A stretch of DNA of 45,266 bases from Candidatus Aminicenantes bacterium (GTDB lineage: Bacteria; Acidobacteriota; Aminicenantia; Aminicenantales; JAFGBC01): NCBI GenBank assembly GCA_022867325.1, contig JALHUR010000146.1, positions 1 to 45,266 on the forward strand. Direction: 5' to 3'. Both the position numbers and the translations under genes were made by a program. The notes under the pieces are model-generated. The model was not told the DNA's origin, made no database searches, and saw only the letters and a program-made list of their open reading frames with translations. Positions 16,018-29,997 of this stretch are shown here, piece by piece. Every line of letters starts with the position of its first letter. Position 1 is the stretch's first letter.

Positions 16018-16029
16018 GAGGAGCCGGCC

Positions 16030-17495: not shown

Positions 17496-17575
17496 GCCTA
17501 ACGTTTCCGGTGTTTGTGAAGTTGCCCGAAGGGCAATTTGGGGAAGCGTAGCTTCCCACAAACACCGTGTTAGAT
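17496..17575 (+). other. Integron attC-like recombination site 1 (80 nt)
   Basis: R'' GCCTAAC (17496-17502, fits RYYYAAC); 5-nt spacer; outer stem cggtgtttgtg (17508-17518) pairing with cacaaacaccg (17557-17567). Inner hairpins are ttgccc-gaa-gggcaa and gggaagc-gta-gcttccc. One t follows, then R' GTTAGAT (17569-17575, fits GTTRRRY). The architecture matches site 2, with compensatory stem changes. Confidence 0.6.
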
Positions 17576-17622
17576 GAAGTTGCTGCCGATTTTCTTTTTT
17601 TAACTCCCCTCTATCAAACATG

Positions 17623-18390
17623 CTAACGCTCTCCTAAAAATGACTTTCTGACCTCGTCATTTTTAAGAAGATTTATTGCTATATCTTCAAAAGCGATTTC
17701 GCCTATTTTAAATACATACCCTCTATTTGCGTACTCTAAAGCCACTCTGGCATTCTGTTCCACAAGCAGAATAGTTGTTCCATCTATGTTAATCTCCTTT
17801 ATCTTTTCAAATACAGTGTCTATATAATTCGGAGAAAGCCCCAGAGATGGTTCATCCAATAGAAGCAGTTTTGGTTTTAGCATCAGGGCTTTGCCAATAG
17901 CAAGCATCTGCTGTTCACCACTGCTTAATGTTCCTGCCCTTTGTTTTTGCCTCTCTTTAAGGATAGGGAATATGCTGAATACCTTCTCTATTAGTTGTTT
18001 CACATCAGTCTTCGGTTGTTGGTTTCTTTTCCCCAGCACTGATAACTTAACACTGGAAACTGTATACGCACCCATTTCCAGATTCTCTAAAACGGTCATT
18101 GAAGTGAAGACCCGTCTACCCTCTGGCACCAGACAAAGTCCTTTCTCAACCAACTGATAAGGCTGTTTGCCATTTATATTTTCTCCTCTAAATAAGACCT
18201 CTCCTGATTTAGGTTTTACCAAGCCACAAATTGCCTTTAGAGCGGTAGTCTTGCCAGCACCGTTTGGACCTATCATTGCCACAATTTCTCCCTCATTTAT
18301 ATTGAGAGAGATATCATCCAGAGCAAGGACAGTATCGTAATATGCTGTTAAGTTTCTTACCTCAAGAAGCACTTTCACGCCTCCTGCCAA
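17623..18390 (-). CDS. livF: Branched-chain amino acid-type ABC transporter, ATP-binding protein (LivF type)
   Basis: 255 aa. Walker [10 protein letters not shown], signature LSSGEQQML, Walker B LLLLDEPS. The substrate is not inferable. Confidence 0.88.
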
Positions 18391-19144
18391 GATATGCTTC
18401 TATAACTTTTTCATTTTTAATTACCACTTCTGGATGACCTTCTGCAATCTTTTGACCATAGTTCAATACAATGATATTATCAGAAATATTTGTTACTACC
18501 TTCATATCGTGCTCAATAAAAAGAATCGTTTTGCCTTTATCTTTTAATTTCTTAAGCACATCAAGTATCTTGACCCTCATATTAGGGAAAACACCTGCCG
18601 TTGGTTCATCCAATAAAAAGAGTTCGGCTCCCGTTGCCAGGGCTCGGGCTAATTCAAGCAATCGTCTCTGTCCATGAGATAAATTCTGTGCAAGTTCGCC
18701 TTTTTTATCTGTAAGACCTACCAATTCAAGGTATTCTAAAGACTTCTCTCTATTTCTCTGCTCCTCGTCTTTCATAACCGTTGCTTGAAGAAGTGCGGAT
18801 ATAAGACCTTCACCTTTATCATATTTGGTTGCGAGCAATATATTCTCCATAACCGTAATCTGCGGGAAAAGCCGGATATTCTGAAACGTCCGTGAGATAC
18901 CTAATCTGGCTATCTTGTAAGGTGGCAGATTAATAATCCTTTTATTCCTAAAATGTATATCTCCAGATTGAGCATTGCAGAATCCAGAGATTATATTAAA
19001 AACTGTTGTTTTCCCCGCACCATTAGGACCTACCAAGGCGTTTATAGTGGCTGGTTCAATAAAGAAGTTCAGGTTATCTACTGCAACAAGTCCGTCAAAT
19101 TCCTTAGAAAGATTTTTAACTTCTAATAACATGTCGCCACTCAT
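18362..19144 (-). CDS. livG: Branched-chain amino acid-type ABC transporter, ATP-binding protein (LivG type)
   Basis: 260 aa. Walker [25 protein letters not shown], Walker [11 protein letters not shown]. Confidence 0.88.
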
Positions 19145-20010
19145 TTGAACCGATACACCCCCATTATCCCTTGAGGTCTTTTAAACATAAGGACTACAAG
19201 CAACAATCCATATATCATCTGTCTCATTGGCGCTGCAATTGAAGAAGGCATTCCCAAAAACCTCAGAAGTTCAGGGAAAACGACCAGAATTACCGCTCCC
19301 ACCATAGAGCCTGATATACTTCCCATTCCTCCAAAGATAACCATAAGAAGGATGGTAATGGATTCCATTACATTGAAACTTGATGGGTCAATAAAGGTTA
19401 TGTAATGGGCATAAAGACTTCCAGCAATACCGGCAAAGAATGCCCCGATAATGAAAACTAATAGTTTGTATTTAATTGTATTCTTCCCTAATGCCTGTGA
19501 GGCAATTTCATCTTCCCGGATAGACCTCAATATTCTGCCAAACGGAGAATTTACTATCCTGTTAATAATAAAAATAGTAATTACCACAAAAACCAAAACC
19601 AGTAATAGATAAGACCATATTTCTGACAATTGAAAACCGGCAATTGAAAACCCTGGTATTCCAGGCAGTCCCATTGGTCCTCTTGTAAGGGATACCCAGT
19701 TCTTGGCAATGGAATACACAATAACCCCCAAACCGAATGTTGCCAGAGCAAGATAATCCCCTTTTAACCGCACTGCTGGATAGCCTATTACAATGCCTGA
19801 GAATGCTGCCACACAGGCTCCAATTAACAATCCTATCCAGGGAGATAAACCTATATTCAATGCGAGCAGGCTTGAGGTATATGCCCCAATACAAGAAAAG
19901 GCTGCATGACCCAGTGTTGGTAGTCCAGTATAGCCCACAATGAGATTAAGGCTCAAGGCAAGGATTATGTATATCCCAGCAATAACAAGTATATGTAAAA
20001 GATATTCCAT
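19141..20010 (-). CDS. livM: ABC transporter permease (LivM type)
   Basis: 289 aa polytopic membrane protein with the LivM-like block [11 protein letters not shown]. It overlaps livG by 4 nt. Confidence 0.85.
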
Positions 20011-20014
20011 GTCT

Positions 20015-20911
20015 TTAAATTGTCTCCTTTTCTGTCTTAGTACCCAGGAAACCCGATGGTCTTATCAAAAGAAAAATTATGAGAATTACAAAAGCAATAC
20101 AATCCTTCCATCCGGCTGATATCTTCCAGATACCAAGATTCTCAGCTAATCCCAGAAAGAATCCACCGAGCACTGCACCTGGAATACTGCCGATACCACC
20201 AATAATAGAGGCAATAATTCCCTTTAAGAGAGCACTAAATCCCATAGTGGGCTCAATATTGGTCTCAAAAGAAATAAGTATCCCAGCAGCACCAGCTAAT
20301 GCAGAGCCTATTGCAAATGAAGTTAAAATTATCTTTTCTGGATTTATGCCAACAATATTTGCTGCTATGGGATCATCAGACACAGCCCTCATTGCTTTGC
20401 CTAGTTTTGCTTTCTGGATAAAGAGCCAGAGCAGTATCATAAGAATGATCGAGACTGCTAAAATCAAAATCTGGATATCAGTAATCACTGCACCAAGAAA
20501 ATGATGTCCTTCCCTGACAGGTCCTGTTCTTATTGTAAGGATCTGTGCCCCATAGATAAGTTGAATTAGATTTTGAAGGAAGATAAAGACACCAAACGAT
20601 GCGAGGAGAAAAATCATGTTAGATGCATTTTGTCGGCGAAGGGGATAATAGACAAATCTATCTATCCCAATGCCGAGGAGGGCAGAAAGGGCAATGGATA
20701 AAAAAAAGGAAAGTGGGAAATTGAGGTGTAATAAGAAAATTAGGGTATAAGCAAAATATGCCCCTGCTGTATAGACCACACCATGAGCGAAGTGAAAGAA
20801 CTTTACTGTGCGGTAGATAACGGTGAAGCCTATAGCAATAAGGGCATAGATACTGCCTGCAATTATTCCGTTTAGTATGAGTTGCTCAAGCAATTTATTC
20901 CTCCCTAGCAA
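20015..20911 (-). CDS. livH: ABC transporter permease (LivH type)
   Basis: Polytopic membrane protein with N-terminus LEQLILNGIIAGSIYALIAIG. The probable true start is the TTG at 20893, preceded by GGGAGG and a 6-nt spacer. The track start at 20911 is also a TTG. Confidence 0.85.
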   Translation of the reverse strand: MLGRNKLLEQLILNGIIAGSIYALIAIGFTVIYRTVKFFHFAHGVVYTAGAYFAYTLIFLLHLNFPLSFFLSIALSALLGIGIDRFVYYPLRRQNASNMIFLLASFGVFIFLQNLIQLIYGAQILTIRTGPVREGHHFLGAVITDIQILILAVSIILMILLWLFIQKAKLGKAMRAVSDDPIAANIVGINPEKIILTSFAIGSALAGAAGILISFETNIEPTMGFSALLKGIIASIIGGIGSIPGAVLGGFFLGLAENLGIWKISAGWKDCIAFVILIIFLLIRPSGFLGTKTEKETI

Positions 20912-20996
20912 ACTAATAACTTATAAATTGATGACTAATACGAGTCATTGCAATGAGACCACAGATGATACCAGGAATAACACCATCAAAGACAAG

Positions 20997-22742
20997 TCAG
21001 TTGGCAACGTCTCGATACACTATTCGGATTTGCCCCCGCTCATGCAATTCAAAGAAACTCTTGATTGGTAGAATATGGAATTTTTGTGTTTCAAGAGCTT
21101 GCGGCATTTTCAAATTCTTTTCCATCTCATCTGTCGCGCTTTTAAGTAATCTAGAGTATAATGAATAGCTATCCACGCGTCGCTTGGCTTGTCCTCCGAA
21201 ACGAACATTGAAAACATCGTCATAATAGAAGGTATAAAAGGGTTCTTTCTTATCCCAATCTACCTCGTAATTAAACCACTTTTCATACTGCAATATATTT
21301 ATTCCCTGCTTTGCGCAATTAAAAATGATCCAGTTACTCGAAAGTTCCTCTATTTTAATCTCAACAGGGTTACCGCGCCCAGCTAACATTGAGAGATAGC
21401 TGCACAGTTCTTTAGTGTCACTTGGAACAAAGACGGTATACACTTTGTAATTATCAGGTGTATCAATAAAATTATGCATAAGAAAATTAACAACTTCATT
21501 GTAATCCTTTTCTTGATTAGTTTTTCTATCTTTCCATCTCTTTCCTATGATTTCTATTATGTTTTTGTTACCCTCCCATTTCTGGTCAGCAGATATATAA
21601 ATATACCTATGAACCTTTAGCCTACTATCTCCCGATTGACGTTCTTTAGCTTGTTTTTTCAATTCATTAGCCCAGTCTAAAATACTATCGCTCGTAATTA
21701 AGCTCAACTCAGACCACATTGTTAGCGGCCAATTTGCTATTATCTCATCTGAAACTGGCAAAATCTCGCGTGAAAAGATTCTGAATTCTCTATCCATTTC
21801 GCTTTTTATTTCCTCAAATCTGTGAGTACCCATCTTTAAAGGCTCAACGAACCATAATTCGGAATGCGTAGCTGAAAAGCTATATCCACTGTCCCTTATT
21901 GATTCTACAACTTTTTGAGACAAAGATGGCAAGATAGTAGAGAAATATTCAATCTTTTTTGCATAATCTGGATGCATTAAAATGCAATTGTCTAACAACT
22001 CCTCCCGAAATTTCTTTATTTCATTTTGTCTTAACCTCCCTTCGGTCGGGATGATAATGCATTTCGACATAAACGAGAAGATGATTTTGTTAGAAAAAAC
22101 AATAATGGGGTCAAATATCTGAGGGAGATGATGTATGTAGAAATAGGAATTACTGCATTGGCGAATCATACGGGCTAACTCCTCTTTTCGAGGAAAGGGC
22201 AGTTCTGTATCAATAACGAGCAAGGGTATATTTTCATAGCCCGACTTTGTACGCAGGAGAGATTCTAGAGAAAAGGGAGTACCATTTTCTTTAAAACTGC
22301 CCAATGCAATCACAGGCTCAGCAGGCTTTTGACCAGCAAATGCTTTCTTCAGATTATCTTCGATAGTGCCTAAGTCTTCAAAAGCTATGATAATAAAGTT
22401 CTCGCCGCTTGTCTTATAATCACGGAGATTTCTTTCGGCAGCTTCAGCCTTTTCTTTGTGTTCCTGCTCTCTCTTTAGAAACGCACGCCGTTCGCCTTCT
22501 AGAGAACTCCGTTCAAATTCCCATTTTCTTTTAAGTTTAAACCCTTTCCATAGCTTCACTAAAGCCCCAAGGGACAGGGACCACACTACCCCTACAATTA
22601 TTTGGGTCAGCAGAAGGCGGTCTTTCGCAAAGTCCGGGAAAAATATCCCAGATATTATCTCGAACAAAACACCGATTGTGGCAAGTATCCACATAATCCA
22701 CGTCTGTCGTGAAGGCTTTTGGTTCGCATAGTCGTTGTTCAT
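20997..22742 (-). CDS. Membrane-anchored protein of unknown function (581 aa)
   Basis: The ATG at 22742 is preceded by GGAGG and a 5-nt spacer (the track start at 22748 is GTG). It has two N-terminal hydrophobic helices (WIMWILATIGVLFEIISGIFF; IIVGVVWSLSLGALV), a charged coiled-coil-like stretch, then about 450 aa with no motif I recognise. Confidence 0.7.
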   Translation of the reverse strand: MNNDYANQKPSRQTWIMWILATIGVLFEIISGIFFPDFAKDRLLLTQIIVGVVWSLSLGALVKLWKGFKLKRKWEFERSSLEGERRAFLKREQEHKEKAEAAERNLRDYKTSGENFIIIAFEDLGTIEDNLKKAFAGQKPAEPVIALGSFKENGTPFSLESLLRTKSGYENIPLLVIDTELPFPRKEELARMIRQCSNSYFYIHHLPQIFDPIIVFSNKIIFSFMSKCIIIPTEGRLRQNEIKKFREELLDNCILMHPDYAKKIEYFSTILPSLSQKVVESIRDSGYSFSATHSELWFVEPLKMGTHRFEEIKSEMDREFRIFSREILPVSDEIIANWPLTMWSELSLITSDSILDWANELKKQAKERQSGDSRLKVHRYIYISADQKWEGNKNIIEIIGKRWKDRKTNQEKDYNEVVNFLMHNFIDTPDNYKVYTVFVPSDTKELCSYLSMLAGRGNPVEIKIEELSSNWIIFNCAKQGINILQYEKWFNYEVDWDKKEPFYTFYYDDVFNVRFGGQAKRRVDSYSLYSRLLKSATDEMEKNLKMPQALETQKFHILPIKSFFELHERGQIRIVYRDVAN

Positions 22743-22776
22743 ACACACCTCCTCTTAATCACAAAAGTATATTCGT

Positions 22777-23832
22777 CTATGACCCCACAATCCCTTCGTT
22801 TCGCTTCGGAAAGCACAATCCGGCCCACCGAAGCTCCCCATACTTTTTATTCTTTGTTTCGCTGCACGCTCGCCAAAGCTCTGCCAACGAAAAATCTCGA
22901 ACATTCCCTACCGTCTCATCCGCTTCACAGACCTTTACATTTCCTATGTCATCCATATACATGCCTGTTCGCGAAATATCGCAGGGCAACCCTCCCGGAA
23001 AATCTGAAGGTTCTGACAATCTAATTCCTTTTCGCTCCCTTAATTCAATGAGTTTTTGTGTTAGAGATTGGATCTCACAAGGCTTTGGCGAATAATTGGC
23101 TCTTGCTATAGGGTTCTTCATTTTGCCGAGGGGCATTAGGGGACATACAAGAGGATAGATGTTGTGATCCAGTGCGAAGTCAAAAACAGAAGGGACTTCG
23201 TCATAAGTTTCTTTTAGTAGAACGATAGCAAAACCCAACCTCGATGGAAAATGTTTGTTGAAACCACATGAAAGCAAACGTTCTAGCGCTCTATCTCTTA
23301 AGATAGAATATCCTTTGCGCTGTACGACCTCATCCTTCTCATACTTTATCATTACTGTTACGCCAATATCGTATAACTTTTGCACAATTTCATCGCAGGA
23401 GAGTCGATGAGCCTTTTGTGCGAGTTCCTCCGAACCTAATGTGTCCCCACAAGTAAAAAGAATCGGTATCATTCCTAACTTCCGAATCGTGGCCAGAAGG
23501 AATAGTATGTCCTTTCTAAGCATCGGTTCACCCTCTCCCAGGATCTTAATACTCTTCCCCCCCAACGCTGCGAACTCTTCAAAAACACGAAGTACTTCCT
23601 GCTGTCTTAATTTGCCTTTCTTGTTCACATACAGAAAACCACAGTAGGTGCAATTATTCAAGCAACGACCGGGTAAAGCGCAATCCATTGTCAAAGGAGT
23701 ATTTTTGCGGCGGGCTTCTAGGATTTCATCTTTTGGAAATGTCCCGCCGTTGTATCCGAAAACTGTCTGCGGAAGTTGGATTGCAGTTTTACTTCCCCGA
23801 GCAGTACAAATGCGGTTGGCCTTTTCACTCAT
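22777..23832 (-). CDS. Radical SAM enzyme with SPASM/twitch-like C-terminal region
   Basis: CX3CX2C motif CLNNCTYC; GEGEPML (GGE-like SAM motif); C-terminal GNVKVCEADETVGNVRDFSLAELW. The probable start is the ATG at 23832, which overlaps the upstream stop (ATGAGTGA). The track start at 23907 would overlap the binding-protein gene by 83 nt. Confidence 0.8.
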   Translation of the reverse strand: MSEKANRICTARGSKTAIQLPQTVFGYNGGTFPKDEILEARRKNTPLTMDCALPGRCLNNCTYCGFLYVNKKGKLRQQEVLRVFEEFAALGGKSIKILGEGEPMLRKDILFLLATIRKLGMIPILFTCGDTLGSEELAQKAHRLSCDEIVQKLYDIGVTVMIKYEKDEVVQRKGYSILRDRALERLLSCGFNKHFPSRLGFAIVLLKETYDEVPSVFDFALDHNIYPLVCPLMPLGKMKNPIARANYSPKPCEIQSLTQKLIELRERKGIRLSEPSDFPGGLPCDISRTGMYMDDIGNVKVCEADETVGNVRDFSLAELWRACSETKNKKYGELRWAGLCFPKRNEGIVGS

Positions 23833-24964
23833 ACAGCACAAGCTTCCCTTGCTCATTGAAAGTGTAAAAGTAGAAGCGTCTCCCAGTTGTCTGCCCATTC
23901 TGGTCAAACTTGATCTCTCCTGTCACCCCTTGGACGACAAATCCTGGATCACGCAGAGCTTGGATGATCTTTTCGTGGTCTAACGATTTTGCTCTATTTA
24001 TACCCTCGGCTAGCACAAGAATTGCATCGTAACCATAGGGAGCGAAGGGTGGAATGGGACCATAGCGCGCCTTATATTTTTGTACGAATTCTTTTGCAGT
24101 TGGGACAGCCTCCCAAGGAGGTGATAGGAAGCTGATATAAACATTTCTACAATTTGTCCCTGCTAGTTTTTTGAAATGCTCGTCAAAACAGCCGTCTCCA
24201 AAAACAAATACTATTTTCAGCCCCAGTTCCTCTGCCTGTCTCACTAGTATTGATCCCTCGGGCATCATACCGCCATAAAATATTGCTTCTGGTTTATAGC
24301 TCTTTGCCATTAACAACACACCACGATAATCTCTTTCTCCAGGGATCAACGCCTCAGAAAGCAGAACATTACCTCCCAAAGATTCAAAATGTTCCTTAAC
24401 TTGCGTGGCTATTCCCTTGCCATAGGATGCGTTATCATGAATTATCACTATCGAGTGATCCTTGAGACGATTAAATATAAATTCCGCCCCTGAAATTCCC
24501 TGCATATTATCGGTCGGGGCAAATCTAAAAACGTTCTCAAAGCCCTGCTGGGTAAGAATGGGGTTGGTTGGAGATGTAGCAACGTAGGGCATCTTGCGGC
24601 TGTGGAAGATTTTTGAGGCAGGGATTGCGTTGCCGCTATTGGGATATCCTATTACACCTATAATGTCGTTTCGGGATGTAAACAGATGAGCAATGTTTAC
24701 TGCGTCCGCAGGCTGGGCCTTGTCATCCTGCGCTAAAAGAGTAACTTTCTTCCCAAGAAGTCCACCCTTATTGTTAATATCCTCGACGGCCAACTCTGCG
24801 GCTCTCCTTTGAGGTTCCCCATAGACCGCACCTTCTCCAGTCAACGGCAAAATAACCCCAATTTTTATCTCCTTCGGCTCATTCTTTGTCTGAGTGACAA
24901 TGAGCAGGATGGCTAAAGCCACAACTACCACGATACCGATTCCAATCCAAATGTTTCGTTTCAT
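23825..24964 (-). CDS. ABC transporter substrate-binding protein (LivK/Peripla_BP_6 type), N-terminal membrane anchor
   Basis: 379 aa. N-terminal hydrophobic helix IWIGIGIVVVVALAILLIV with no lipobox Cys, then KIGVILPLTGEGAVYGEPQRRAAELAVEDINNKGGLLGKKV. AGGAGG lies 9 nt upstream of the ATG. Confidence 0.85.
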   Translation of the reverse strand: MKRNIWIGIGIVVVVALAILLIVTQTKNEPKEIKIGVILPLTGEGAVYGEPQRRAAELAVEDINNKGGLLGKKVTLLAQDDKAQPADAVNIAHLFTSRNDIIGVIGYPNSGNAIPASKIFHSRKMPYVATSPTNPILTQQGFENVFRFAPTDNMQGISGAEFIFNRLKDHSIVIIHDNASYGKGIATQVKEHFESLGGNVLLSEALIPGERDYRGVLLMAKSYKPEAIFYGGMMPEGSILVRQAEELGLKIVFVFGDGCFDEHFKKLAGTNCRNVYISFLSPPWEAVPTAKEFVQKYKARYGPIPPFAPYGYDAILVLAEGINRAKSLDHEKIIQALRDPGFVVQGVTGEIKFDQNGQTTGRRFYFYTFNEQGKLVLYE

Positions 24965-24992
24965 AATTCACTACCTCCTTTCCTCAAAAATT

Positions 24993-25021
24993 TTTCTAGC
25001 CTCTCGTTGTCCCTTTGTCAA
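24993..25021 (-). promoter_or_regulatory. Sigma70-type promoter of the binding-protein/rSAM/ABC operon
   Basis: On the minus strand: TTGACA (25021-25016), a 17-nt spacer, then TAGAAA (24998-24993). This lies about 30 nt upstream of the ATG at 24964. Confidence 0.45.
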
Positions 25022-25070
25022 TTTTTTTATTTATCCCTCTCTCTTCTAAACCAATATCGCCAGCAATTTC

Positions 25071-25149
25071 ATCTAACGGTCTCGGGCTATACGAAGTCGG
25101 CGTAAGCCGATTTTGGCGAACGAAGTGAGCCGTATAGCCCGTGTTAGGC
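25071..25149 (+). other. Integron attC-like recombination site 2 (79 nt)
   Basis: R'' ATCTAAC (25071-25077); 5-nt spacer; outer stem cgggctatacg (25083-25093) pairing with cgtatagcccg (25131-25141). The inner hairpin is tcggc-gtaa-gccga, and a second, imperfect hairpin is ggcgaac-gaa-gtgagcc. One t follows, then R' GTTAGGC (25143-25149). R'' is the exact complement of the TTAGAT that follows the G of site 1. Confidence 0.62.
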
Positions 25150-25195: not shown

Positions 25196-26176
25196 TCATT
25201 TCATCTCCTTTTCTTTCAAAATTTCTTTTTCTAAATCCCGGAGAGATATTTTTTGGCCGTTTTCGTATATAAAAGTGTATCCGTTTTTATTTTCATCTTC
25301 TACCATGGTTAATTTATAAAACATATCTCTACTCAACTCGTATAATTTCTTAAAATCTGCTATAGTTTTGTATGCACCACACCAACATTCTGTTGAGGTT
25401 CCTAAAGAATGTAGAAGAGTTTTTGGTATGCCGTTATTATTGATATAGGCTATTACATCATCATCTGGCCAATAAAAAATTGGACTGACAGAGAGACACT
25501 TGAAACTTGGGTGATACCATATCGGCATGTATTGTTTTCTTACATTAGATTCCGCTGCCCTTATTCCATCAAAAACAACTTTCTGCTCTTTTATGCTATC
25601 TAAATATTCCTTAATAGGCTTGATTTTTAATTCTCTGCAACACCATCTATACTTAAAACTTGGGATACCCCATTCTTTTGCTAAAGTAAAGTAATCTACT
25701 TTTGGTCTCACTATTTTGAGATTAACTTCTAAATATTTGCAGACTTTTTTTACGTATTTTGTATTTTCAGGGAGCCCGGCTGTTGTATCCACATAAATCG
25801 CAGTTAAATCATTACCATCTTTTTTTGCAAAGTCTTTTAAATAAACTAGAGTAGCAAGACTATCCTTTCCTCCGCTAAATAGAATAAATGATTTTCTGCT
25901 TTTTAAAAGCCTTTTAATATCACTCTCCAATATAGAGACTTTATCGCGTATATTATTGGATTGTTCTTGATCAAGCTCACATACTTCTCTTACTTTCTCC
26001 CGTTTAATATGCAGAATGTAAATAGGTTTCAATGTCGGGCCTTTAATCCACCTAGTAATAATCAAACCTTTTTCTTTGCATTTGGGGCAATTAACGTTAA
26101 GACTTTTCAAATTAATTCCCGCAAAGGCTTCTTCAATTGGTGCCCACCACTTATTATTTGAATTAGAGCTATCCAT
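25196..26176 (-). CDS. PAPS reductase-family PP-loop ATP pyrophosphatase (DndC/IbrA-like) with an N-terminal Cys-containing extension
   Basis: 326 aa. PP-loop FILFSGGKDS; family signature RWCCRELKIKP; C-terminal ECWCGAY; N-terminal CPKCKEKG. The start overlaps the upstream gene by 8 nt. Confidence 0.8.
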   Translation of the reverse strand: MDSSNSNNKWWAPIEEAFAGINLKSLNVNCPKCKEKGLIITRWIKGPTLKPIYILHIKREKVREVCELDQEQSNNIRDKVSILESDIKRLLKSRKSFILFSGGKDSLATLVYLKDFAKKDGNDLTAIYVDTTAGLPENTKYVKKVCKYLEVNLKIVRPKVDYFTLAKEWGIPSFKYRWCCRELKIKPIKEYLDSIKEQKVVFDGIRAAESNVRKQYMPIWYHPSFKCLSVSPIFYWPDDDVIAYINNNGIPKTLLHSLGTSTECWCGAYKTIADFKKLYELSRDMFYKLTMVEDENKNGYTFIYENGQKISLRDLEKEILKEKEMK

Positions 26177-27125
26177 TTATTGCCTCCACAGTTCCTATCA
26201 ACCTTAATCCTCTTTCTCTGAAGTCTGTAAAAGGAACCGGAGAAAAGATTTTTTCACCCTCATATGTTGGTGAAAGTTGAGAAGCTAAACTCTGTTGAAT
26301 TAAACAGTCCTCTATTGAATCAACAGAAAGTTTCTCGTCAATTACTTTGAGATATTTATTGACTGTTTGATGCCGTTGTAATTTCTGTAATATCTCGGAT
26401 GTGCCTACATGTGTTCTATTGGTCTTTCGCATCGCCTCGTAAAATTTTACACCAAGGAAAGCACTTTTTTCAATTCGTAGTACTTCTTTTTGCCAGTATA
26501 TGACTACGTTGTCAACAGCTCTTTGAAAATTATCTAAAGAAGATGAGTTCCTGATACACTCCGAGATCTGATTTAATATTTTTCGAAGTTCTAAGTGCCT
26601 CATGGTGAATGCTAAAATAGAAGTTTCTAAAATTCTTGAGATATCTGAAATTTCAATTGGAATGAGTTTATATTCTTCTCTAGGATTACTTTTAATGGAT
26701 CTAAATGTATCTCTATGCATTGTGTTGCATATTAATAAGGCAAAAGTATCTCTTGGATTTATCTGTGACTGAGAGCAAAAATCTTCACAGTGTCTAATGG
26801 ACTGTGCAAATTCTTGTGACCATTGATTAGCTCCAGTTTTTAATGTTGCTTCTATTGTTAGGCAGAAGCCATAGCAATAAGCAATTGTGTCTGGTCCGCC
26901 CGCTGGGGCTCTAGAAATAGTAGGATTGATGTTGCCGCGCCAAGTTACACGATGAGAAATGGTAGGCTGGTCGTTATCAGTGCTGTAGAATGGTAAATGA
27001 AGGATATAAGCAAATGCCTCAGCAATTAGTTTCTCAAAATATGTTGATCGCAACGATTGCTGAAATTGCGCTAGATATTGGTCAAGGTTTTTTAAGGTTC
27101 TTAAAATTGTCCGGGAGGATGCCAT
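26169..27125 (-). CDS. Hypothetical protein (318 aa), possible PD-(D/E)xK-like nuclease fold
   Basis: FEKLIAEAF helix, then GGPDTIAYCYGFCLTIEATLKTGANQWSQE. This is a PD...E.T.K arrangement resembling, but not matching, the canonical D-(D/E)xK. No family recognised. Confidence 0.65.
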   Translation of the reverse strand: MASSRTILRTLKNLDQYLAQFQQSLRSTYFEKLIAEAFAYILHLPFYSTDNDQPTISHRVTWRGNINPTISRAPAGGPDTIAYCYGFCLTIEATLKTGANQWSQEFAQSIRHCEDFCSQSQINPRDTFALLICNTMHRDTFRSIKSNPREEYKLIPIEISDISRILETSILAFTMRHLELRKILNQISECIRNSSSLDNFQRAVDNVVIYWQKEVLRIEKSAFLGVKFYEAMRKTNRTHVGTSEILQKLQRHQTVNKYLKVIDEKLSVDSIEDCLIQQSLASQLSPTYEGEKIFSPVPFTDFRERGLRLIGTVEAING

Positions 27126-27135
27126 AACTACACCT

Positions 27136-27702
27136 TTATCTCTCCTCTTTTTTTGCTTTCTGTGTTAACCAATCCGCAACTATACCTTTTACCAGCTCTG
27201 CTGGCTTAATTTTCAAGGTTCTGGCATGTTTTATGATTGCTCGATACATTTCGTCATCAAAATCCATCACAAAAATATGTAGTCCCTTCGGCTTTGCTTC
27301 TAAAACTACTTTCTTTGCCTCTTTAATAGGTACATTAGCGCCCTTAACGAGCCGTTTTATATCCCTCACATCTTTTGATAATGAATTTATAAATGCCTCA
27401 GCTGCAGCAATCTGTTTGGATGGATCTTTAAGCACTGAAATCTCTCTTATAATATCAATACCATCTATTCTTCTATCCGAAACTAACTTCTGTATTTCCT
27501 CGGGTAGCTTTAAAGTTGTCAAAAATTCTCTTATCATTTCAGTAGAAAGTCCTACCTTCTCTGCTACGACTTTTTGTGAACCGTATAATCTAACAAGATA
27601 GTCAAAAGCGTTAGCAACAGTAATCAAATCATCTGGTCTTTTTTTTCTTTTTGTATTGGCAAACACTATAGCTAAGGCGGCTTCTTCATTTAGTTTTCTC
27701 AT
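27136..27702 (-). CDS. HTH protein, paralog of the ParB-like protein without the ParB N-domain; RHH-like C-terminus
   Basis: 188 aa. VAEKVGLSTEMIREFLTTLKLPEEIQKLVSDRRI aligns by eye with VAEHLGVSPQTVRNYLGYAAVPEPIKKMVDEGKL of the upstream gene. The C-terminus HIFVMDFDDEMYRAIIKHARTLKIKPAELVKGIVADWL parallels RVTIDLTPRVADALEQACQKYKSDAEDITMEALEDWL. There is an ATGA start/stop overlap with the upstream gene. Confidence 0.7.
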   Translation of the reverse strand: MRKLNEEAALAIVFANTKRKKRPDDLITVANAFDYLVRLYGSQKVVAEKVGLSTEMIREFLTTLKLPEEIQKLVSDRRIDGIDIIREISVLKDPSKQIAAAEAFINSLSKDVRDIKRLVKGANVPIKEAKKVVLEAKPKGLHIFVMDFDDEMYRAIIKHARTLKIKPAELVKGIVADWLTQKAKKEER

Positions 27703-28490
27703 TTAATAAACCCCCTTCGCTTAAGCCAATCTTCAAGAGCTTCCATTGTTATATCTTCAGCGTCGCTTTTGTATTTTTGACATGCTTGTTCTAGAGCATC
27801 AGCAACCCTTGGTGTTAAATCAATTGTTACTCTCTTGAACTTCTGCTCCTTTACAGTTTTTACAATCTCGGCTGGTGTTTTTTGAGGATTCTCTCTTTCC
27901 ACATCAATTATTTTTCTTCTGTCTTCACTGCGAGGGGTTTCCTTAATTTTCTCTGCGATTTTCACAGCTTTTTTTTCATCTGAGATGTTTTTTGCTATTC
28001 TGGTAGCGGTAGAAGCACTTAGTTTCCCTTCGTCTACCATTTTTTTAATAGGTTCTGGTACCGCAGCATATCCTAGATAATTTCTTACAGTTTGGGGTGA
28101 TACACCAAGATGTTCTGCCACTTTATTAACAGAGCTAAACTTGTTCAACAACTCTGTAGCAACTTGCATTTTATCACGATATTCAAGTTCGAGGCGGTGA
28201 ATATTCTCGCTAAAAGATTTGATAGTAGCATCTGTTTCATCCTTTACAATAGTTATAAGGGCAGGAATCTCTCTCAATCCCAGTTTTTTGCAGGCAAGAA
28301 GGCGTCGCTGTCCAATTAATAGTTCGTATCTGTCTTCCTTTTGGAAAACCACAACTGGCTGCTGAACACCTATTTCTCTGATACTGTTAGCAAGTTCATC
28401 AATGCCCTCCTCAAGATTAGATTTTCGGACATTTGAAACGCTTATATCTATTTTATCCAATGGTAGGTATTCAAATTTTAATTTTTTCAT
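27699..28490 (-). CDS. ParB/Srx N-terminal domain protein with HTH and RHH-like C-terminus (IbrB/DndB-like position)
   Basis: The start is taken at ATG 28490 (MKKLKFEYLPLDKI), with GGAGAGG 11 nt upstream; the track start is 28532. ParB N-domain blocks are LPLDKIDISVSNVRK, IDELANSIREIGVQQPVVV and the arginine motif LLIGQRRLLACKKLG. The HTH is VAEHLGVSPQTVRNYL. Confidence 0.8.
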   Translation of the reverse strand: MKKLKFEYLPLDKIDISVSNVRKSNLEEGIDELANSIREIGVQQPVVVFQKEDRYELLIGQRRLLACKKLGLREIPALITIVKDETDATIKSFSENIHRLELEYRDKMQVATELLNKFSSVNKVAEHLGVSPQTVRNYLGYAAVPEPIKKMVDEGKLSASTATRIAKNISDEKKAVKIAEKIKETPRSEDRRKIIDVERENPQKTPAEIVKTVKEQKFKRVTIDLTPRVADALEQACQKYKSDAEDITMEALEDWLKRRGFIK

Positions 28491-28534
28491 TTTTATCAAT
28501 CCTCTCCATATGTCTACCTTTCGCCTAAACACTA

Positions 28535-28563
28535 AGTATACGACGTATGGCGTATATTTTCAA
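28535..28563 (-). promoter_or_regulatory. Sigma70-type promoter of the ParB/PAPS-reductase operon, with a palindrome in the spacer
   Basis: On the minus strand: TTGAAA (28563-28558), a 17-nt spacer, then TATACT (28540-28535). On the plus strand, aagtatacg-acgtatgg-cgtatattt (28534-28559) forms an 8/9 inverted repeat that overlaps the -10 element and the spacer. Confidence 0.45.
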
Positions 28564-28748: not shown

Positions 28749-29096
28749 ATGCTTGAAAAGTACGATGATGACAATGAGCTAAAAGCATGCGTTTATAAAT
28801 CGCTCACGGGCATGCTGGAGTTTCAATCGACTCACCCTGAAGAGAATCAGTACGAGATCATTTGGCTGATCTACTTCATCAAGAGTGTTTTACGTAAGCA
28901 AATTAGCCACCGTAATAATTATTCCAACGATCTTGTAAGGACCGTTGCGACTGAGAATCGCGAGTTCTTTAGAGCTTTCAGTGACGCCAAGTTCTTTAAT
29001 ATGCCGACTTTACCTGTATCGCGAAATCATCTGCTCCAGCATTTGGCCATCTTTTGGGCGAAGCAAGCAGACGAAGCAATCAATGGTCCAGAATAG
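28749..29096 (+). CDS. Hypothetical protein (115 aa), cassette-like orphan
   Basis: Plus-strand ORF with plausible composition, immediately followed by an attC-like imperfect palindrome. No family recognised. It could be a gene fragment. Confidence 0.4.
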   Translation: MLEKYDDDNELKACVYKSLTGMLEFQSTHPEENQYEIIWLIYFIKSVLRKQISHRNNYSNDLVRTVATENREFFRAFSDAKFFNMPTLPVSRNHLLQHLAIFWAKQADEAINGPE

Positions 29097-29184
29097 TCTG
29101 AACGAATTTGAATGATATACGAATGGTCGGGCGTATAATAAATCGCTGGAGCGGACTCGGCCAGAGCGCGCAAATCCGTTGACA
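29097..29184 (+). other. Degenerate attC-like element
   Basis: It starts right after the stop codon of the 115-aa ORF. The 13-nt blocks ctgaacgaatttg (29098-29110) and caaatccgttgac (29171-29183) are a 10/13 inverted repeat. They contain an R''-like TCTGAAC and an R'-like GTTGACA. Internally, tatacgaa...cgta resembles the left half of attC-like site 2. It fits the RYYYAAC/GTTRRRY consensus only partly. Confidence 0.3.
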
Positions 29185-29235
29185 ATAGTATTGCTGGGCC
29201 GATCAGCTCGCGGTCGTTTGGCACAAGGAGGTGAC

Positions 29236-29997
29236 ATGAAAAAACCGTGGGTTACAATAAGTATGGTAATGCTCATAATATGTGGTACGGCGTGGGGGCA
29301 ACAGACAAACCTATACGACGACCGCCCCAAGATCACGGTGAACGGCGAAGCGGTTGTGAATGTGGAGCCGGACAAGATCGTAATTAACTTTGGGATCGAA
29401 ACCTGGGATACCGACATCGTTGTCGCCAAGCAAAAGAACAACGAGATCCTGAAGAAGGCTAAAGCGGCGATGAGGGAATCGGGCGTACCAGAAAGGGAGA
29501 TCCAGACGGATTACCTGTCCATAGAGCCGCGATGGAAGAGCGAATACCGCAAGGAAGATTTCCTCGGGTACTTTGTCCGCAATACTGTTGTGGTGACGCT
29601 CACAGATGCGGCCAAAGTCGAAAAGCTGGTCACAGAGGTTCTTCAGGCCGGAGTCAACTACATTCACGGTATTGATTTTCAGACAACCGAGTTCAAGAAA
29701 TACCGTGAGCAAGCGCGCGAACTGGCGCTCAAGGCCGCCAAGGAGAAGGCAGACAAGATGGCGGCTGTCCTCGGCCAGTCCGTCGGCGCGCCTATCCAGA
29801 TCAACGAGAGCCATGGAGGGTCGCCCTGGTGGTACTGGTCAAGTTGGTCCGGATGGGGATACGGCCGAAATCAGAGCATGTCCCAAAATGTCGTTCAGAA
29901 TGTGCAAGGCAGCTCAGGCGAGATCAGCGAGACCATTTCCCTCGGCAAGATATCAATCCGGGCGGCTGTTACAGTGACTTTTGAACTCAAGAAATGA
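29236..29997 (+). CDS. SIMPL/DUF541 domain periplasmic protein (BP26/Omp28-like)
   Basis: The ATG at 29236 is preceded by AGGAGG. Signal peptide MKKPWVTISMVMLIICGTAWG, then ITVNGEAVVNVEPDKIVINFGIE... and the C-terminal strand ISIRAAVTVTFEL typical of the family. The track start at 29179 is a TTG inside the preceding attC-like element. Confidence 0.7.
   Translation: MKKPWVTISMVMLIICGTAWGQQTNLYDDRPKITVNGEAVVNVEPDKIVINFGIETWDTDIVVAKQKNNEILKKAKAAMRESGVPEREIQTDYLSIEPRWKSEYRKEDFLGYFVRNTVVVTLTDAAKVEKLVTEVLQAGVNYIHGIDFQTTEFKKYREQARELALKAAKEKADKMAAVLGQSVGAPIQINESHGGSPWWYWSSWSGWGYGRNQSMSQNVVQNVQGSSGEISETISLGKISIRAAVTVTFELKK

Follow-up and report, generated by a model that had tools for sequence, protein, structure and literature searches.

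A four-gene cassette of ParB-like, nuclease, and PAPS-reductase-like proteins that looks like an undescribed restriction-modification-type immunity module

What function could unite a ParB-like protein, an HTH paralog of it, a nuclease, and a PAPS-reductase-like enzyme? Genes for these proteins, in this 5'-to-3' order, form a tightly coupled minus-strand operon at 25196-28532 of the window, the whole 45,266-nucleotide stretch of DNA analyzed here. The original prediction, made from the sequence alone, was that the operon is a candidate undescribed modification or defense module. Our analysis supports that interpretation, and every refuting condition proposed with it that could be checked spoke for it; the function itself, modification or defense, remains an inference. 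Our preferred reading, to which we assign a probability of roughly 0.45, is that the operon is a self-contained, horizontally mobile restriction-modification (RM)-like module of two exchangeable parts, a mark from the PAPS-like enzyme and restriction by the ParB-like protein and nuclease.

Layout, conservation, and genomic context of the operon

All four predicted open reading frames are present on the minus strand (Table 1). Their junctions are as predicted: a 4-nt overlap of the ParB-like and HTH paralog genes at 27699-27702, a 10-nt gap before the nuclease gene (27126-27135), and an 8-nt overlap of the nuclease and PAPS-like genes at 26169-26176. The motifs listed in the original prediction (LLIGQRRLLA, SGGKDS, WCCRELKIKP, ECWCG, CPKC, and PD...IEATLK) were all found, and they are invariant or nearly so across homologs except for the K of IEATLK; the proposed PD...E.T.K arrangement of the nuclease thus exists, but its lysine is not conserved. 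Likewise, the ParB open reading frame does extend to a GTG at 28532, but that codon sits within the conserved 5' boundary of the cassette. The true start is probably the ATG at 28490 with its GGAGAGG ribosome-binding site, as inferred from homolog lengths and that site.

Table 1. Positions of the operon's genes and of neighboring sites in the window
Feature	Coordinates	Strand	Basis
ParB-like protein, 263 aa	27699..28490	minus	ParB N-domain, ParB HTH, and strand-helix-helix (RHH-like) tail
HTH paralog, 188 aa	27136..27702	minus	ParB HTH domain and RHH-like tail, without the N-terminal NTPase domain
AlwI/BspD6I-type nuclease, stand-alone, 318 aa	26169..27125	minus	RE_AlwI match, catalytic residues, fold
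PAPS-reductase-like PP-loop enzyme, 326 aa	25196..26176	minus	PAPS_reduct match, PP-loop, cysteine set
attC-type site, cassette 3' end	25071..25149	minus	GCCTAAC ... GTTAGAT on minus strand
Cassette 5' boundary and leader	28491..28563	minus	Boundary copy, promoter-like site, ribosome-binding site
Second attC-type site	17496..17575	minus	R1 92 bits, E 4e-23; same strand as first

The original prediction had proposed asking whether the four genes co-occur elsewhere. They do so strictly, in bacteria and archaea: the order is identical in each of the 28 related loci whose length suffices to reveal it, and it recurs in further contigs. Chance open reading frames are thus excluded, and the genes are real. 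The cassette is conserved across dozens of uncultured bacteria and archaea, and the related loci come from organisms of anoxic sediments; source names of family members and contigs include Methanophagales, Neomarinimicrobiota, Omnitrophota, TA06, Zixibacteria, Thermodesulfobacteriota, Planctomycetota, WOR-3, and Aminicenantes. No conserved fifth gene accompanies the cassette across the informative loci. The flanks are variable, and about 7 of 10 long contexts contain other defense genes (Eco57I/MmeI-type enzymes, DpnII R-M, N6_N4 methyltransferases, OLD/AAA_15, HerA, PLDc_2, Abi_C, HEPN-MNT, and PIN).

The operon was predicted to lie in an acquired island beside an attC-like site, and both features were recovered. 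The island has 35-45% GC over about 17.0-29.2 kb, compared with 60-68% in its flanks. The attC-type site next to the PAPS-like gene scored 90.8 bits (E 8e-23) with covariance model R1, whose consensus structure shows compensatory changes in 10 of 16 pairs. Homologous sites lie 3' of the PAPS gene in loci L008, L018, and L035, with an array of four in L018. The second attC-type site marks the left edge of the island and bounds a neighboring 7.5-kb block outside the operon. At the other end, GTTTAGGCGAAAGG (28530-28517) in the leader is a degenerate copy of GTTAGG[YR]AAAGGGC, which comes after the upstream attC in relatives; L015 and L024 have both the conserved leader and an upstream attC. Judged from these sites, the operon is an integron gene cassette between attC sites in the window's clade, and cassette mobility is an observed property. 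A promoter-like TTGAAA-17-TATACT stands upstream of the ParB gene at 28563-28535; such sites were no commoner in the region than in shuffles. We found no conserved parS-like or operator palindrome upstream of the operon, a point against the preferred reading.

Domain identities and catalytic motifs of the four proteins

Domain identities and intact catalytic motifs could be observed directly. The ParB-like protein matches ParB_N (3e-17), HTH_ParB (4e-7), and TIGR00180 (114.6 bits; cutoff, 58.45), and aligns with structures of Myxococcus xanthus, Thermus thermophilus, Caulobacter crescentus, and Bacillus subtilis ParB, Noc, and KorB at 1e-16 to 1e-6. Its N-domain motifs NVR, GQRR, and ENIHR are invariant in 24 homologs. 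It is a canonical HTH-bearing partition-type ParB, unlike DUF262- or Osa-type enzymes, and it can be aligned with CTP-dependent clamps, whose arginine and ENxxR motifs it retains. However, GQRR replaces GERR. At the equivalent position of Caulobacter ParB, the E102A substitution abolishes CTP hydrolysis. Thus, any clamp cycle here would be atypical.

The second protein is, as predicted, a paralog of the HTH and tail of the first. It matches ParB residues 126-274 by hhalign with 97.7% probability (E 2e-12), BLASTP gives 5e-7, and HTH_ParB (1e-8) is its sole Pfam domain call. Assignment of the tails as RHH is weak, resting on an RHH_1 score of 0.0085 in the tail of one family member only.

The 318-residue protein, originally called nuclease-like, has a genuine AlwI/BspD6I-type catalytic domain. 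RE_AlwI matches at 2e-12 (47.1 bits; cutoff, 23.1), with the match confined to profile positions 273-437 of 441. The conserved catalytic set in homologs is E31, D79, E92, E105, and H112; the last four are invariant and align with the N.BspD6I region that includes D456. The AF2 model (pLDDT 89) best matches Nt.BspD6I (1.5e-8) and the R.BspD6I small subunit 2p14 (target-normalized TM-score 0.78) by Foldseek. After the catalytic domain (about 1-170) come a long helix and, probably, a winged helix at the C terminus (about 240-300); N-terminal sequence-recognition domains are absent.

The PAPS-like enzyme (PAPS_reduct, 5e-25) has an intact SGGKDS PP-loop, invariant C179-C180, C227, and C264-x-C266, and an N-terminal C2HC zinc-ribbon-like domain (C30, C33, H56, and C66). 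Its WCC pair aligns with the ECC pair of Pseudomonas aeruginosa APS reductase 2goy, so that the CC of the CC...CxC set falls on APS-reductase cluster ligands. It lies nearer to BrxP and SspD than to CysH: PADLOC scores were 77 bits for SspD, 63 for BrxP, and 36 for DndC, and authentic BrxP proteins rank among its closest relatives. In contrast, CysH and APS-reductase NCBIfam models gave 40-54 bits against cutoffs of 154-235, and solved CysH structures only about 23 bits. The PP-loop protein thus does not group with assimilatory CysH, an outcome in favor of the original prediction.

We considered whether the four could be chance-adjacent housekeeping or partition genes: a ParB, a regulator, an orphan restriction enzyme, and an assimilatory CysH. 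Names given to homologs ("PAPS reductase/FAD synthetase," "ParB/RepB/Spo0J family," and "AlwI family type II restriction endonuclease") would suit this idea, but it is barely credible. Strict synteny across phyla and domains amid unrelated flanks and the family placement of the PAPS-like enzyme already contradict it, and translational coupling in the window, the intact PP-loop, location in a low-GC island between attC sites, and the absence of a ParA gene from every cassette locus also count against it.

The enzyme is also no DndC equivalog (27 bits; cutoff, 290), and it and its nearest relatives have only generic scores of 60 to 80 bits to SspD and BrxP. Its substrate could thus be another one: a base instead of the backbone, or something other than DNA. 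The RM logic might hold with a thiolated or otherwise derivatized DNA base as the mark, formed via an adenylated intermediate in the way that TtuA, NcsA, and TtcA modify tRNA; this would be a new DNA modification. Foldseek matches of the AF2 model (pLDDT 80) are to PAPS/APS reductases and then to the [4Fe-4S] tRNA thiolases TtuA and NcsA, the zinc-ribbon domain is unique, and the family is very small and isolated (26 representatives at E <= 1e-30 among 1.84 billion), all of which fit a base mark. We nevertheless think it very unlikely, as the nearest characterized families by sequence are the PT enzymes BrxP and SspD and we know of no DNA base thiolation system.

Exchange of parts and the proposed division of labor

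Identity between the window and L035 is 76% for the PAPS protein, 39% for the ParB-like protein, and 33% for the HTH paralog, and their nucleases show no relationship. L037 and L035 share 93.7% DNA identity over 962 bp spanning the PAPS gene only. By these comparisons, the PAPS gene is swapped as one unit among cassettes that differ in their remaining three genes. Nuclease types are interleaved in the PAPS tree, and Mantel r of the distance matrices is 0.90-0.93 within ParB, HTH, and AlwI but 0.74-0.77 to PAPS. The three-gene block is not inviolable, since L024 and L018 have nucleases 94-95% identical to the window's and ParB and HTH paralog proteins only about 70% identical. In about half of the wider family, a DUF6602 PD-(D/E)xK-like nuclease substitutes for the AlwI-like gene; the two types are similar in size (90 and 94 clusters, respectively). 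The nuclease also evolves fastest, with a mean pairwise identity of 51% against 61-65% for the other three proteins. Such evolution and replacement are typical of restriction or effector genes. Exchangeability of both the nuclease and the PAPS gene is observed; along with integron cassette status, DUF6602 replacement and unit-wise PAPS gene exchange are new and were not in the original prediction.

In the preferred reading of an RM-like module, the PAPS-like enzyme, taken as an ATP pyrophosphatase bearing a cysteine set of Fe-S type, would mark host DNA by adenylating it and passing on sulfur that a housekeeping cysteine desulfurase supplies. The mark's chemistry is inferred; most likely it would be phosphorothioate (PT), as made by the relatives SspD, BrxP, and DndC and by TdpC, working alone. 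The ParB-like protein may bind CTP and close round DNA as a clamp, with the HTH paralog as a co-specificity or adaptor subunit, and the two would recruit the minimal nuclease (AlwI-type here, DUF6602-type elsewhere) to cut unmarked DNA. CTP clamping, this division of labor, and an anti-phage or addiction function are likewise inferences. There has been no experiment on any cassette member, so neither mark nor protection is demonstrated, which we count against this reading.

Alternatively, all four proteins could be one DNA-modification machine, Ssp- or Dnd-like with substituted parts and no restriction arm. The ParB CTPase would be the NTPase that scans DNA, taking the place of the SspC or DndD ATPase, and site recognition would fall to the two RHH-tailed HTH proteins instead of DndE or SspB. 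The nuclease of either type would be a nickase that opens the backbone so that the PAPS-like enzyme can insert sulfur, and whatever restriction occurs would be encoded by unlinked genes. The cassette does have one candidate for each of the three core PT activities and for the nicking step (PMC12707154), and among AlwI-family relatives, those with solved structures (Nt.BspD6I and its small subunit) are nickases, or subunits of them, in nature. Two RHH domains are present in DndE, recalling the two RHH-like tails on the paralogous proteins here, and PT modification is often uncoupled from restriction modules (PMC10853773); type II and IIG enzymes are frequent neighbors. However, an integral nickase should coevolve with the PAPS enzyme, which instead moves alone, and here the nuclease is the fastest-evolving gene and is replaced by an unrelated fold. 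PT synthesis is also achieved by tdpC alone in the Tdp system (PMC12914056). We regard a single machine as unlikely, though worth serious consideration.

Comparison with known systems

By membership tests, the cassette is not a Dnd, Ssp, or BREX type 4 system. PADLOC 2.0 returned only single-protein SspD, BrxP, DndC, and REase_II matches without partner genes, no NCBIfam equivalog reached cutoff, and full-text literature searches, which took in two recent Aravind-lab/Krishnan PT and BREX surveys, turned up no account of the cassette. Within the libraries and papers searched, the prediction that no described system matches thus stands, and the cassette resembles an undescribed RM-type immunity module.

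PT modification requires a PAPS-reductase-like enzyme, an NTPase, and a DNA-recognizing or nicking component, with sulfur possibly from IscS or SufS (PMC12707154, PMC10853773, PMC12914056). Restriction modules of several kinds are found as partners of PT modification modules (PMC9239217). Against a PT mark, the cassette lacks a P-loop NTPase, a component taken to be essential for PT synthesis in dnd, ssp, and brx; isolates carrying PAPS reductase yet without PT are also reported (PMC12914056).

It is also conceivable that defense or addiction here works without any mark on host DNA. Invading or damaged DNA would be detected by the ParB-like clamp and its paralog, or these would be loaded onto it, and they would license the nuclease to act as an effector of the abortive-infection or toxin-like kind. 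Some other role would fall to the PAPS-like enzyme, such as thiolating or adenylating a nucleotide, tRNA, or protein partner, serving as an antitoxin or regulator, or stabilizing integron arrays in the manner of toxin-antitoxin cassettes. This would suit the operon's place in an integron cassette. DUF6602 is the nuclease domain of the single-gene integron defense cassette "Damona" (bioRxiv 10.1101/2024.07.02.601686). Other conflict systems use ParB/Srx domains as NTPases or nucleases (PMC10853773, PMC12839542), and untested clusters combine a nucleoid protein and PAPS reductase, with or without Arc and ParBc proteins (preprint 10.64898/2026.04.06.716658). The closest virus-record relatives of the PAPS-like enzyme are archaeal-virus PUA-PAPS-reductase fusions, a hint at RNA that also counts against the preferred reading. 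Yet no part of the cassette is more widely shared and exchanged than the PAPS enzyme, which keeps all catalytic and cysteine motifs, its characterized relatives BrxP, SspD, and DndC all act on DNA, and the ParB-like protein is of the partition type. We therefore hold a system without a mark to be distinctly unlikely.

A DNA methyltransferase gene overlaps the ParB start in L001, L010, and L012; in these loci methylation, not the PAPS enzyme, could provide the protection from the nuclease.

Operon layout and conservation

The four minus-strand open reading frames that the original prediction placed at 25196-28532 are all present, and they join as it described, with a 4-nt overlap, a 10-nt gap and an 8-nt overlap (see table below). 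Together they make up a four-gene cassette of 3.4 kb. The start of the ParB-like gene probably has to be revised: the GTG at 28532 is less likely, and the ATG at 28490, with its GGAGAGG ribosome-binding site, is the most likely start, yielding a predicted protein of 263 aa, as in the homologs. A single promoter for the four genes, which had also been proposed, could not be demonstrated, as promoter-like sites were no more common than in shuffles.

Features located in the window around and within the four-gene operon
Feature	Position	Strand	Size	Basis or remark
etfB, etfA	15235-17007			adjoin the island
Low-GC island	~17.0-29.2 kb			35-45% GC; flanks 60-68% GC
Second attC-type site	17496-17575	same as first site		covariance model
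Block between the attC-type sites	17576-25070		7.5 kb	remainder of the low-GC island
Protein without Pfam match	20997-22748		583 aa	
Radical SAM protein	22777-23907			
LivK-type binding protein	23825-24964			
First attC-type site	25071-25149		79 nt	covariance model, 90.8 bits; directly 3' of PAPS stop
Third gene junction, overlap	26169-26176	-	8 nt	
Second gene junction, gap	27126-27135	-	10 nt	
First gene junction, overlap	27699-27702	-	4 nt	
ORF without Pfam match	28749-29096	+	115 aa	between cassette and high-GC host DNA
SIMPL/DUF541 gene	29179-29997			

The operon had been placed in an island, and it does lie within a stretch of low GC. No tRNA genes or Rfam families were found in the window by tRNA and Rfam scans. 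An assembly chimera is unlikely to have produced the low-GC island, though it is not formally excluded, because the attC sites that bound the island share their family and position with those of independent contigs. The right-hand junction of the island falls in the region of the 115-aa ORF, before the SIMPL/DUF541 gene, and no attC or integrase was found there. At the other end, the electron-transfer flavoprotein genes etfB and etfA adjoin the island, and in the archaeal contig L004 (11319-13094) they are likewise only a few genes away from the cassette; this proximity is probably a coincidence.

That the four genes occur together elsewhere was borne out by a tblastn census of 28 loci, in which all long-enough contigs carried the complete gene set with its order unchanged; the annotated contigs agree with this order. 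The cassette is present in only 2 of 185,579 species representatives, and the census was therefore based on metagenome contigs. Carriers are found in both domains, among them a Methanophagales MAG (ANME-1), a Neomarinimicrobiota SAG, and an archaeal 798-kb contig with TFIIB, Gar1, and S8e. The source names of homologs include Omnitrophota, TA06, Zixibacteria, Thermodesulfobacteriota, Planctomycetota, WOR-3, and Aminicenantes. Flanks vary by locus, and there is no fifth conserved gene. We found no cysteine desulfurase, P-loop NTPase, or ParA in the cassette loci, and a methyltransferase was not constant. Other defense genes occur in about 7 of 10 long contexts, and one locus lies among housekeeping genes.

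In one subclade (L001/L002/L003/L012, 5365-6642; also upstream of ParB in L010), the cassette is a five-gene variant, in which a gene for a 425-aa DNA methyltransferase (N6_N4_Mtase/UPF0020) shares 4 nt with the start of ParB, and a DpnII-type R-M pair follows the PAPS gene.

A viral origin was not supported, since nothing close was found in IMG/VR or in the phage or plasmid records. The operon is absent from IMG/VR, where we found no nuclease relative and one distant PAPS match only. The best matches in 50,697 phage records were 24-34% identical and none had the operon; across plasmid and phage records, relatives were at 34% identity or less and the operon was never present.

The operon as an integron cassette

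The original prediction had claimed an attC-like boundary on one side of the operon. A structured attC is confirmed there, and a further site lies on the same strand at the far end of the island. Six attC-type sites, from the window and four other loci, fold alike, and 10 of the 16 pairs in their common structure show compensatory changes. The covariance model also found an array of four sites in the homologous locus L018 (at 1589, 3283, 4358, and 5665) and one site upstream of ParB in each of L015 and L024, while many loci had no attC at all by this model. L018/L024 is a chromosomal integron array, and the four-gene operon is one of its cassettes. A conserved leader, GTTAGG[YR]AAAGGGC, marks the cassette 5' end. 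We looked upstream of ParB for a conserved parS-like or operator palindrome; there was none, and this cassette boundary came to light instead. We detected no integron integrase, in that no tyrosine-recombinase similarity or motif was present anywhere in the 45-kb window; the window therefore contains an attC cluster without an integrase.

Several smaller observations concern these arrays. In L018 (JABUBP010000400.1, subsurface metagenome), the four attC sites (1589-5749) are 1.1-1.7 kb apart and come after the operon, and another precedes it (L024 744-830). The block between the two same-strand sites of the window encodes a LivFGMH-type ABC transporter in addition to the 583-aa, radical SAM, and LivK-type proteins, and it is unusually large for an integron cassette. 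The attC of L035 (10026-10104), a locus in a Thermodesulfobacteriota MAG, is very like the left-hand site of the window (CTAACACGGT.TTGTGG.AAGCTACGCTTCC), and genes for LivK-type binding proteins (L035 1-2293) lie near its DUF6602-type cassette. Together, the attC likeness and the LivK genes hint at kinship between the host or integron of the window and this Thermodesulfobacteriota lineage.

Domains and motifs of the four proteins

The ParB call for the first protein was upheld by domain search (ParB_N at 3e-17, plus HTH_ParB). The protein is above the curated cutoff of TIGR00180 (ParB/RepB/Spo0J; 114.6 versus 58.45 bits) and far under those of the Noc, RepB, and PRTRC-ParB equivalog models of NCBIfam, and it aligns to solved structures of the CTP-dependent ParB, Noc, and KorB at 1e-16 to 1e-6. 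We compared the nucleotide-pocket motifs box I (xPR), box II (GERRxRA), and box III (ENLxR). SNVR, GQRRLLA, and ENIHR show no variation among 24 ParB homologs and line up with the corresponding motifs in solved ParBs, with Gln replacing the Glu of GERR in box II and Asn and Val replacing Gln and Pro in box I. In Caulobacter ParB, an E-to-A change at the GERR position is reported to abolish CTP hydrolysis but not binding. Judged by these motifs and without biochemistry, nucleotide binding in the CTP pocket is likely and hydrolysis is uncertain. With GQRR in place of GERR, the family may be a slow or partner-regulated switch. We rejected a ParABS partition system because a ParA-type gene was absent from all annotated neighborhoods of homologous loci.

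The second protein has HTH_ParB as its sole domain. It had been described as a paralog of the HTH and tail of the first, and this relationship stood (hhalign probability, 97.7%), but the ribbon-helix-helix (RHH) tail was only weakly supported. The tails of both proteins have a strand-helix-helix pattern that fits RHH, and it is from this pattern that we infer their nature; Pfam gave one weak RHH_1 match (0.0085) and one 56B_RHH match (0.094).

The third protein, of 318 aa, had been called nuclease-like and can now be assigned to the AlwI restriction endonuclease family (PF09491; 47.1 bits versus a cutoff of 23.1; E value, 2.3e-12). The match is limited to the C-terminal catalytic part, profile positions 273-437 of 441. 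The AlwI-like family comprises 94 clusters, whose proteins measure 312-326 aa and come exclusively from metagenomes or MAGs, and all but 2 of the 94 homologs listed carry PF09491. E31, D79, E92, Q101, E105, and H112 are invariant. Searched with the family profile, the nickase N.BspD6I gives 1.4e-6, and R.BspD6I is matched through its catalytic small subunit (0.004). D79, E92, E105, and H112 align to the N.BspD6I segment containing D456, the residues of which we take to be D456, E469, E482, and H489; D456A and E418A mutant entries exist in the PDB. An AlphaFold model (pLDDT, 89) matched Nt.BspD6I at 1.5e-8 in Foldseek and gave a target-normalized TM-score of 0.78 against the small subunit, 2p14. 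Residues 240-300 are winged-helix-like on the basis of weak WH-domain matches and an H-H-H-strand-strand pattern only. The N-terminal sequence-recognition domains are absent from the protein (318 aa, versus about 580-610 for N.BspD6I). Since the catalytic part alone was matched and the modeled fold is BspD6I-like, the protein is predicted to be a cleavage module without a recognition domain, comparable to the small subunit in heterodimeric type IIS enzymes.

R.BspD6I, which consists of a nickase large subunit and a 186-aa catalytic small subunit, has the catalytic fold and the D/E/E/H residues in common with the 318-aa protein. Its small subunit also lacks DNA-recognition domains, and the 318-aa protein is presumably targeted by partner proteins. 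Unlike the small subunit, our protein has an extra long helix and a probable C-terminal winged helix, and its partners are ParB-family proteins rather than an AlwI-family large subunit. In contrast to type IIS/AlwI enzymes, a cognate methyltransferase is missing from most cassette loci.

The fourth protein matched PAPS_reduct at 5e-25 and otherwise only ATP_bind_3 and QueC in Pfam. Clustering with CysH would have refuted the original prediction. We found that the protein falls far short of the cutoffs of the NCBIfam models for CysH and APS reductase: PRK02090 (53.5 versus 154), TIGR00434 (44.3 versus 165), TIGR02055 (40.1 versus 235), and TIGR02057 (22.2 versus 254). CysH-type sulfate assimilation was rejected on these scores and on the intact PP-loop, which reads SGGKDS where the aligned APS reductase of Pseudomonas aeruginosa reads SGAED. 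The DndC equivalog TIGR03183 was likewise missed (27.3 bits versus a cutoff of 290.4). The best PADLOC matches were SspD (77 bits), BrxP (63), and DndC (36). At 3.8e-22, the SspD match takes in profile positions 4-222 of 277 and the entire catalytic domain, C-terminal extension included, but the score is generic because the nearest out-group relatives score alike, with 54-72 bits to SspD and 51-81 to BrxP. Only 26 proteins among 1.84 billion representatives matched at an E value of 1e-30 or less, and the next relatives include bona fide BrxP proteins, which score 231-250 bits with the BrxP model. With CysH far under the cutoff and BrxP among the relatives, these comparisons place the family in the BrxP/SspD neighborhood and not with CysH, as an equivalog of none of them.

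The PAPS-like family is highly conserved. Its invariant residues are C30, C33, H56, and C66, which belong to a zinc-ribbon-like domain at the N terminus, and C179-C180, C227, and C264-x-C266 in the core. The WCC pair aligns to the ECC pair of the P. aeruginosa APS reductase, whose cysteines ligate its [4Fe-4S] cluster. A model of the protein (pLDDT, 80) resembles PAPS/APS reductases and then the [4Fe-4S] tRNA thiolases TtuA and NcsA. We detected no Tdp, DndC, or SspD chain in the PDB, either in sequence searches or in the 50 best fold matches of this model.

A neighboring family of PAPS-reductase-like proteins of ~250 aa (P0311, P0313, P0316-P0318, P0321-P0324) is 37-44% identical to the enzyme of the window, lacks the N-terminal zinc-ribbon domain, and scores equally to the SspD and BrxP models. 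The closest relatives in phage records are from archaeal viruses, at 31-34% identity: one in Sulfolobus monocaudavirus SMV2 (KP238129/NC_029020, 35713-36441), annotated as a PUA-PAPS reductase-like fusion, and one in Acidianus tailed spindle virus (KU645528, 59892-60593).

Exchange of modules and a possible mechanism

The third slot of the cassette is exchangeable. In L034, a 4.3-Mb genome, and in L035, the slot holds a 200-aa DUF6602 protein, between ParB with a longer HTH paralog and the PAPS gene. DUF6602 is the nuclease-like domain of the integron defense cassette "Damona" (bioRxiv 10.1101/2024.07.02.601686). Its signature here is PD-(D/E)xK-like, with invariant E82, D84, and E147 and with Q/E at 116, then x, then K/R. 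At 90 clusters, this variant is about as numerous as the AlwI variant.

The PAPS gene moves on its own, as a unit apart from the others. When the window is compared with L035, the PAPS proteins are 76% identical, with 39% for ParB and 33% for the paralog. The PAPS proteins of L035 (DUF6602-type) and L037 (AlwI-type) are 95% identical, and the DNA of these two loci is 93.7% identical across 962 bp, which is the PAPS gene only; both sides are unrelated. Nuclease types, assigned partly by contig-length matching, are interleaved on the PAPS tree, and the nearest neighbor is of the same type in 32 of 52 cases. Across 18 AlwI-type loci, the correlation of distances is r = 0.90-0.93 among ParB, paralog, and nuclease, and 0.74-0.77 between these and PAPS. 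The nuclease gene evolves fastest (mean identity, 51%). The ParB/paralog/nuclease block is not absolute: the nuclease of L024/L018 is 94-95% identical to that of the window, with about 72% for ParB and about 69% for the paralog.

Phosphorothioate (PT) synthesis involves a PAPS-reductase-like sulfur inserter, an NTPase, and a DNA-recognizing or -nicking protein, and the sulfur often comes from an unlinked IscS or SufS (PMC10853773, PMC12707154, PMC12914056). In the Tdp system, tdpC alone is enough for PT synthesis (PMC12914056). PT modification modules are partnered by several different restriction modules (PMC9239217).

The two-module structure of the cassette fits a reading in which the PAPS-like enzyme would be a writer that marks DNA, and the ParB clamp, the paralog, and the plug-in nuclease would be the reader and executor. 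We put the probability of this fit at roughly 45%. The absence of a P-loop NTPase speaks against it. In our main rival, which we consider unlikely, the cassette would be purely a modification machine, with the nuclease as its nickase and the ParB CTPase standing in for DndD or SspC. However, the PAPS gene is exchanged as a unit and the nuclease is swapped for another fold, both of which argue against such a machine. The writer and reader/executor reading is weakened further by the merely generic similarity to SspD and BrxP and by the PUA fusions among the closest viral homologs. That the mark is something other than PT seems improbable to us. The methyltransferase gene overlapping the ParB start in one subclade also counts against the writer and reader/executor reading, for which there is no experimental evidence whatever. 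An abortive or addiction module that makes no mark remains conceivable, though we hold it to be slightly less likely even than the pure modification machine.

In the favored reading, the cassette is an R-M-like, probably PT-type system with an undescribed ParB-based architecture, again without experimental evidence. More tentatively, and with doubt outweighing belief, it could be a previously undescribed type of immunity based on sulfur modification of DNA, additional to dnd, ssp, tdp, and brx, where a stand-alone PAPS-like writer is combined with a ParB CTP-switch clamp and truncated paralog that deliver a plug-in nuclease. If so, it would be the first partition-type ParB clamp to serve as motor or sensor of a restriction complex, in a system small enough to move as an integron cassette between bacteria and archaea, and the few known systems that put sulfur marks on DNA, on its backbone or its bases, would gain one with a new architecture. 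Partition-type ParB CTPases, which have been studied as chromosome-segregation and gene-silencing clamps, would moreover acquire a role in immunity; we know of none so far. Integron cassettes as defense stores would be extended to multigene cassettes and to anaerobic sediment lineages. With naturally swappable nuclease and modification genes in a portable 3.4 kb, the cassette is handy for dissecting how marks are written and read.

The claim that the operon matches no named system held within the comparison made: PADLOC 2.0 gave single-protein matches only, without partners, and no NCBIfam equivalog passed (DefenseFinder and TdpC were outside the comparison). The gene set is undescribed in the literature searched, including recent systematic surveys of PT and BREX systems. 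Untested clusters of a nucleoid protein, a PAPS reductase, and Arc and ParBc proteins have been listed in a preprint (10.64898/2026.04.06.716658); their composition is different from that of the cassette.

SspABCD-SspE/SspFGH systems have in common with the cassette a PAPS-reductase-family PP-loop enzyme (SspD being the best PADLOC match), a DNA-nicking or HTH component, an NTPase, possible sulfur supply from an unlinked desulfurase, and one modification module with interchangeable restriction modules. However, SspA, SspB (DUF4007), SspC (ORC/Cdc6-type ATPase), and SspE are missing from the cassette by Pfam and PADLOC, and no SspB or SspC was found in its neighborhoods either. Unlike in SspABCD, the NTPase candidate is a ParB-type CTPase and the nuclease domain is of the AlwI or DUF6602 type. 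BREX type 4 (brxPCZL) makes phosphorothioates (PMC12914056) and, like the cassette, couples a PAPS-reductase domain to a DNA-binding/nicking module. BrxP is, however, a ~780-aa fusion with DUF4007 and further domains, of which the cassette protein matches only profile positions 131-294 of 779, and no BREX core genes (BrxC, PglZ, BrxL) were found near the cassette in the examined neighborhoods. The two-module logic proposed for the cassette is the same as that of TdpABC. This hypercompact PT system, reportedly described by An et al. in 2025 in Nat Chem Biol, is said to make its mark with one gene, tdpC, and to restrict unmarked DNA with a separate NTP-driven DNA-tracking protein and a nuclease. 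Where the cassette has a ParB clamp, TdpABC has the hexameric ATPase TdpA.

Dnd has the PP-loop/Fe-S sulfur-inserting DndC, the ParB-superfamily DndB, and the RHH DNA-binding DndE (PMC10853773). The cassette resembles it in all three kinds of protein, but the DndD ABC ATPase and DndE are absent from the operon and its flanks, and the cassette ParB, unlike DndB, is of the canonical partition type with an HTH, above the TIGR00180 cutoff. The IbrA/IbrB pairs of prophages and phages also bring ParB-superfamily and PAPS-reductase-family proteins together in mobile DNA. In IbrA the PAPS-reductase domain is followed by DUF3440, which Pfam did not find in the PAPS-like protein of the window. Unlike IbrA/IbrB, the cassette has two extra obligatory genes, and its ParB is an HTH-bearing partition type. 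If the sulfur-modification class proposed here is real, it might illuminate the widespread unexplained IbrAB-type pairs. The N-domain motifs and HTH of the cassette ParB align with those of the CTP clamps ParB, Noc, and KorB. In contrast to these clamps, the cassette has no ParA and no identified parS, its ParB has an RHH-like C-terminal tail and reads GQRR and SNVR instead of GERR and (Q)PR, and its gene shares an operon with those of a nuclease and a PP-loop enzyme. KorB has a small HTH protein, KorA, as its partner, and a small HTH partner is likewise encoded beside the cassette ParB.
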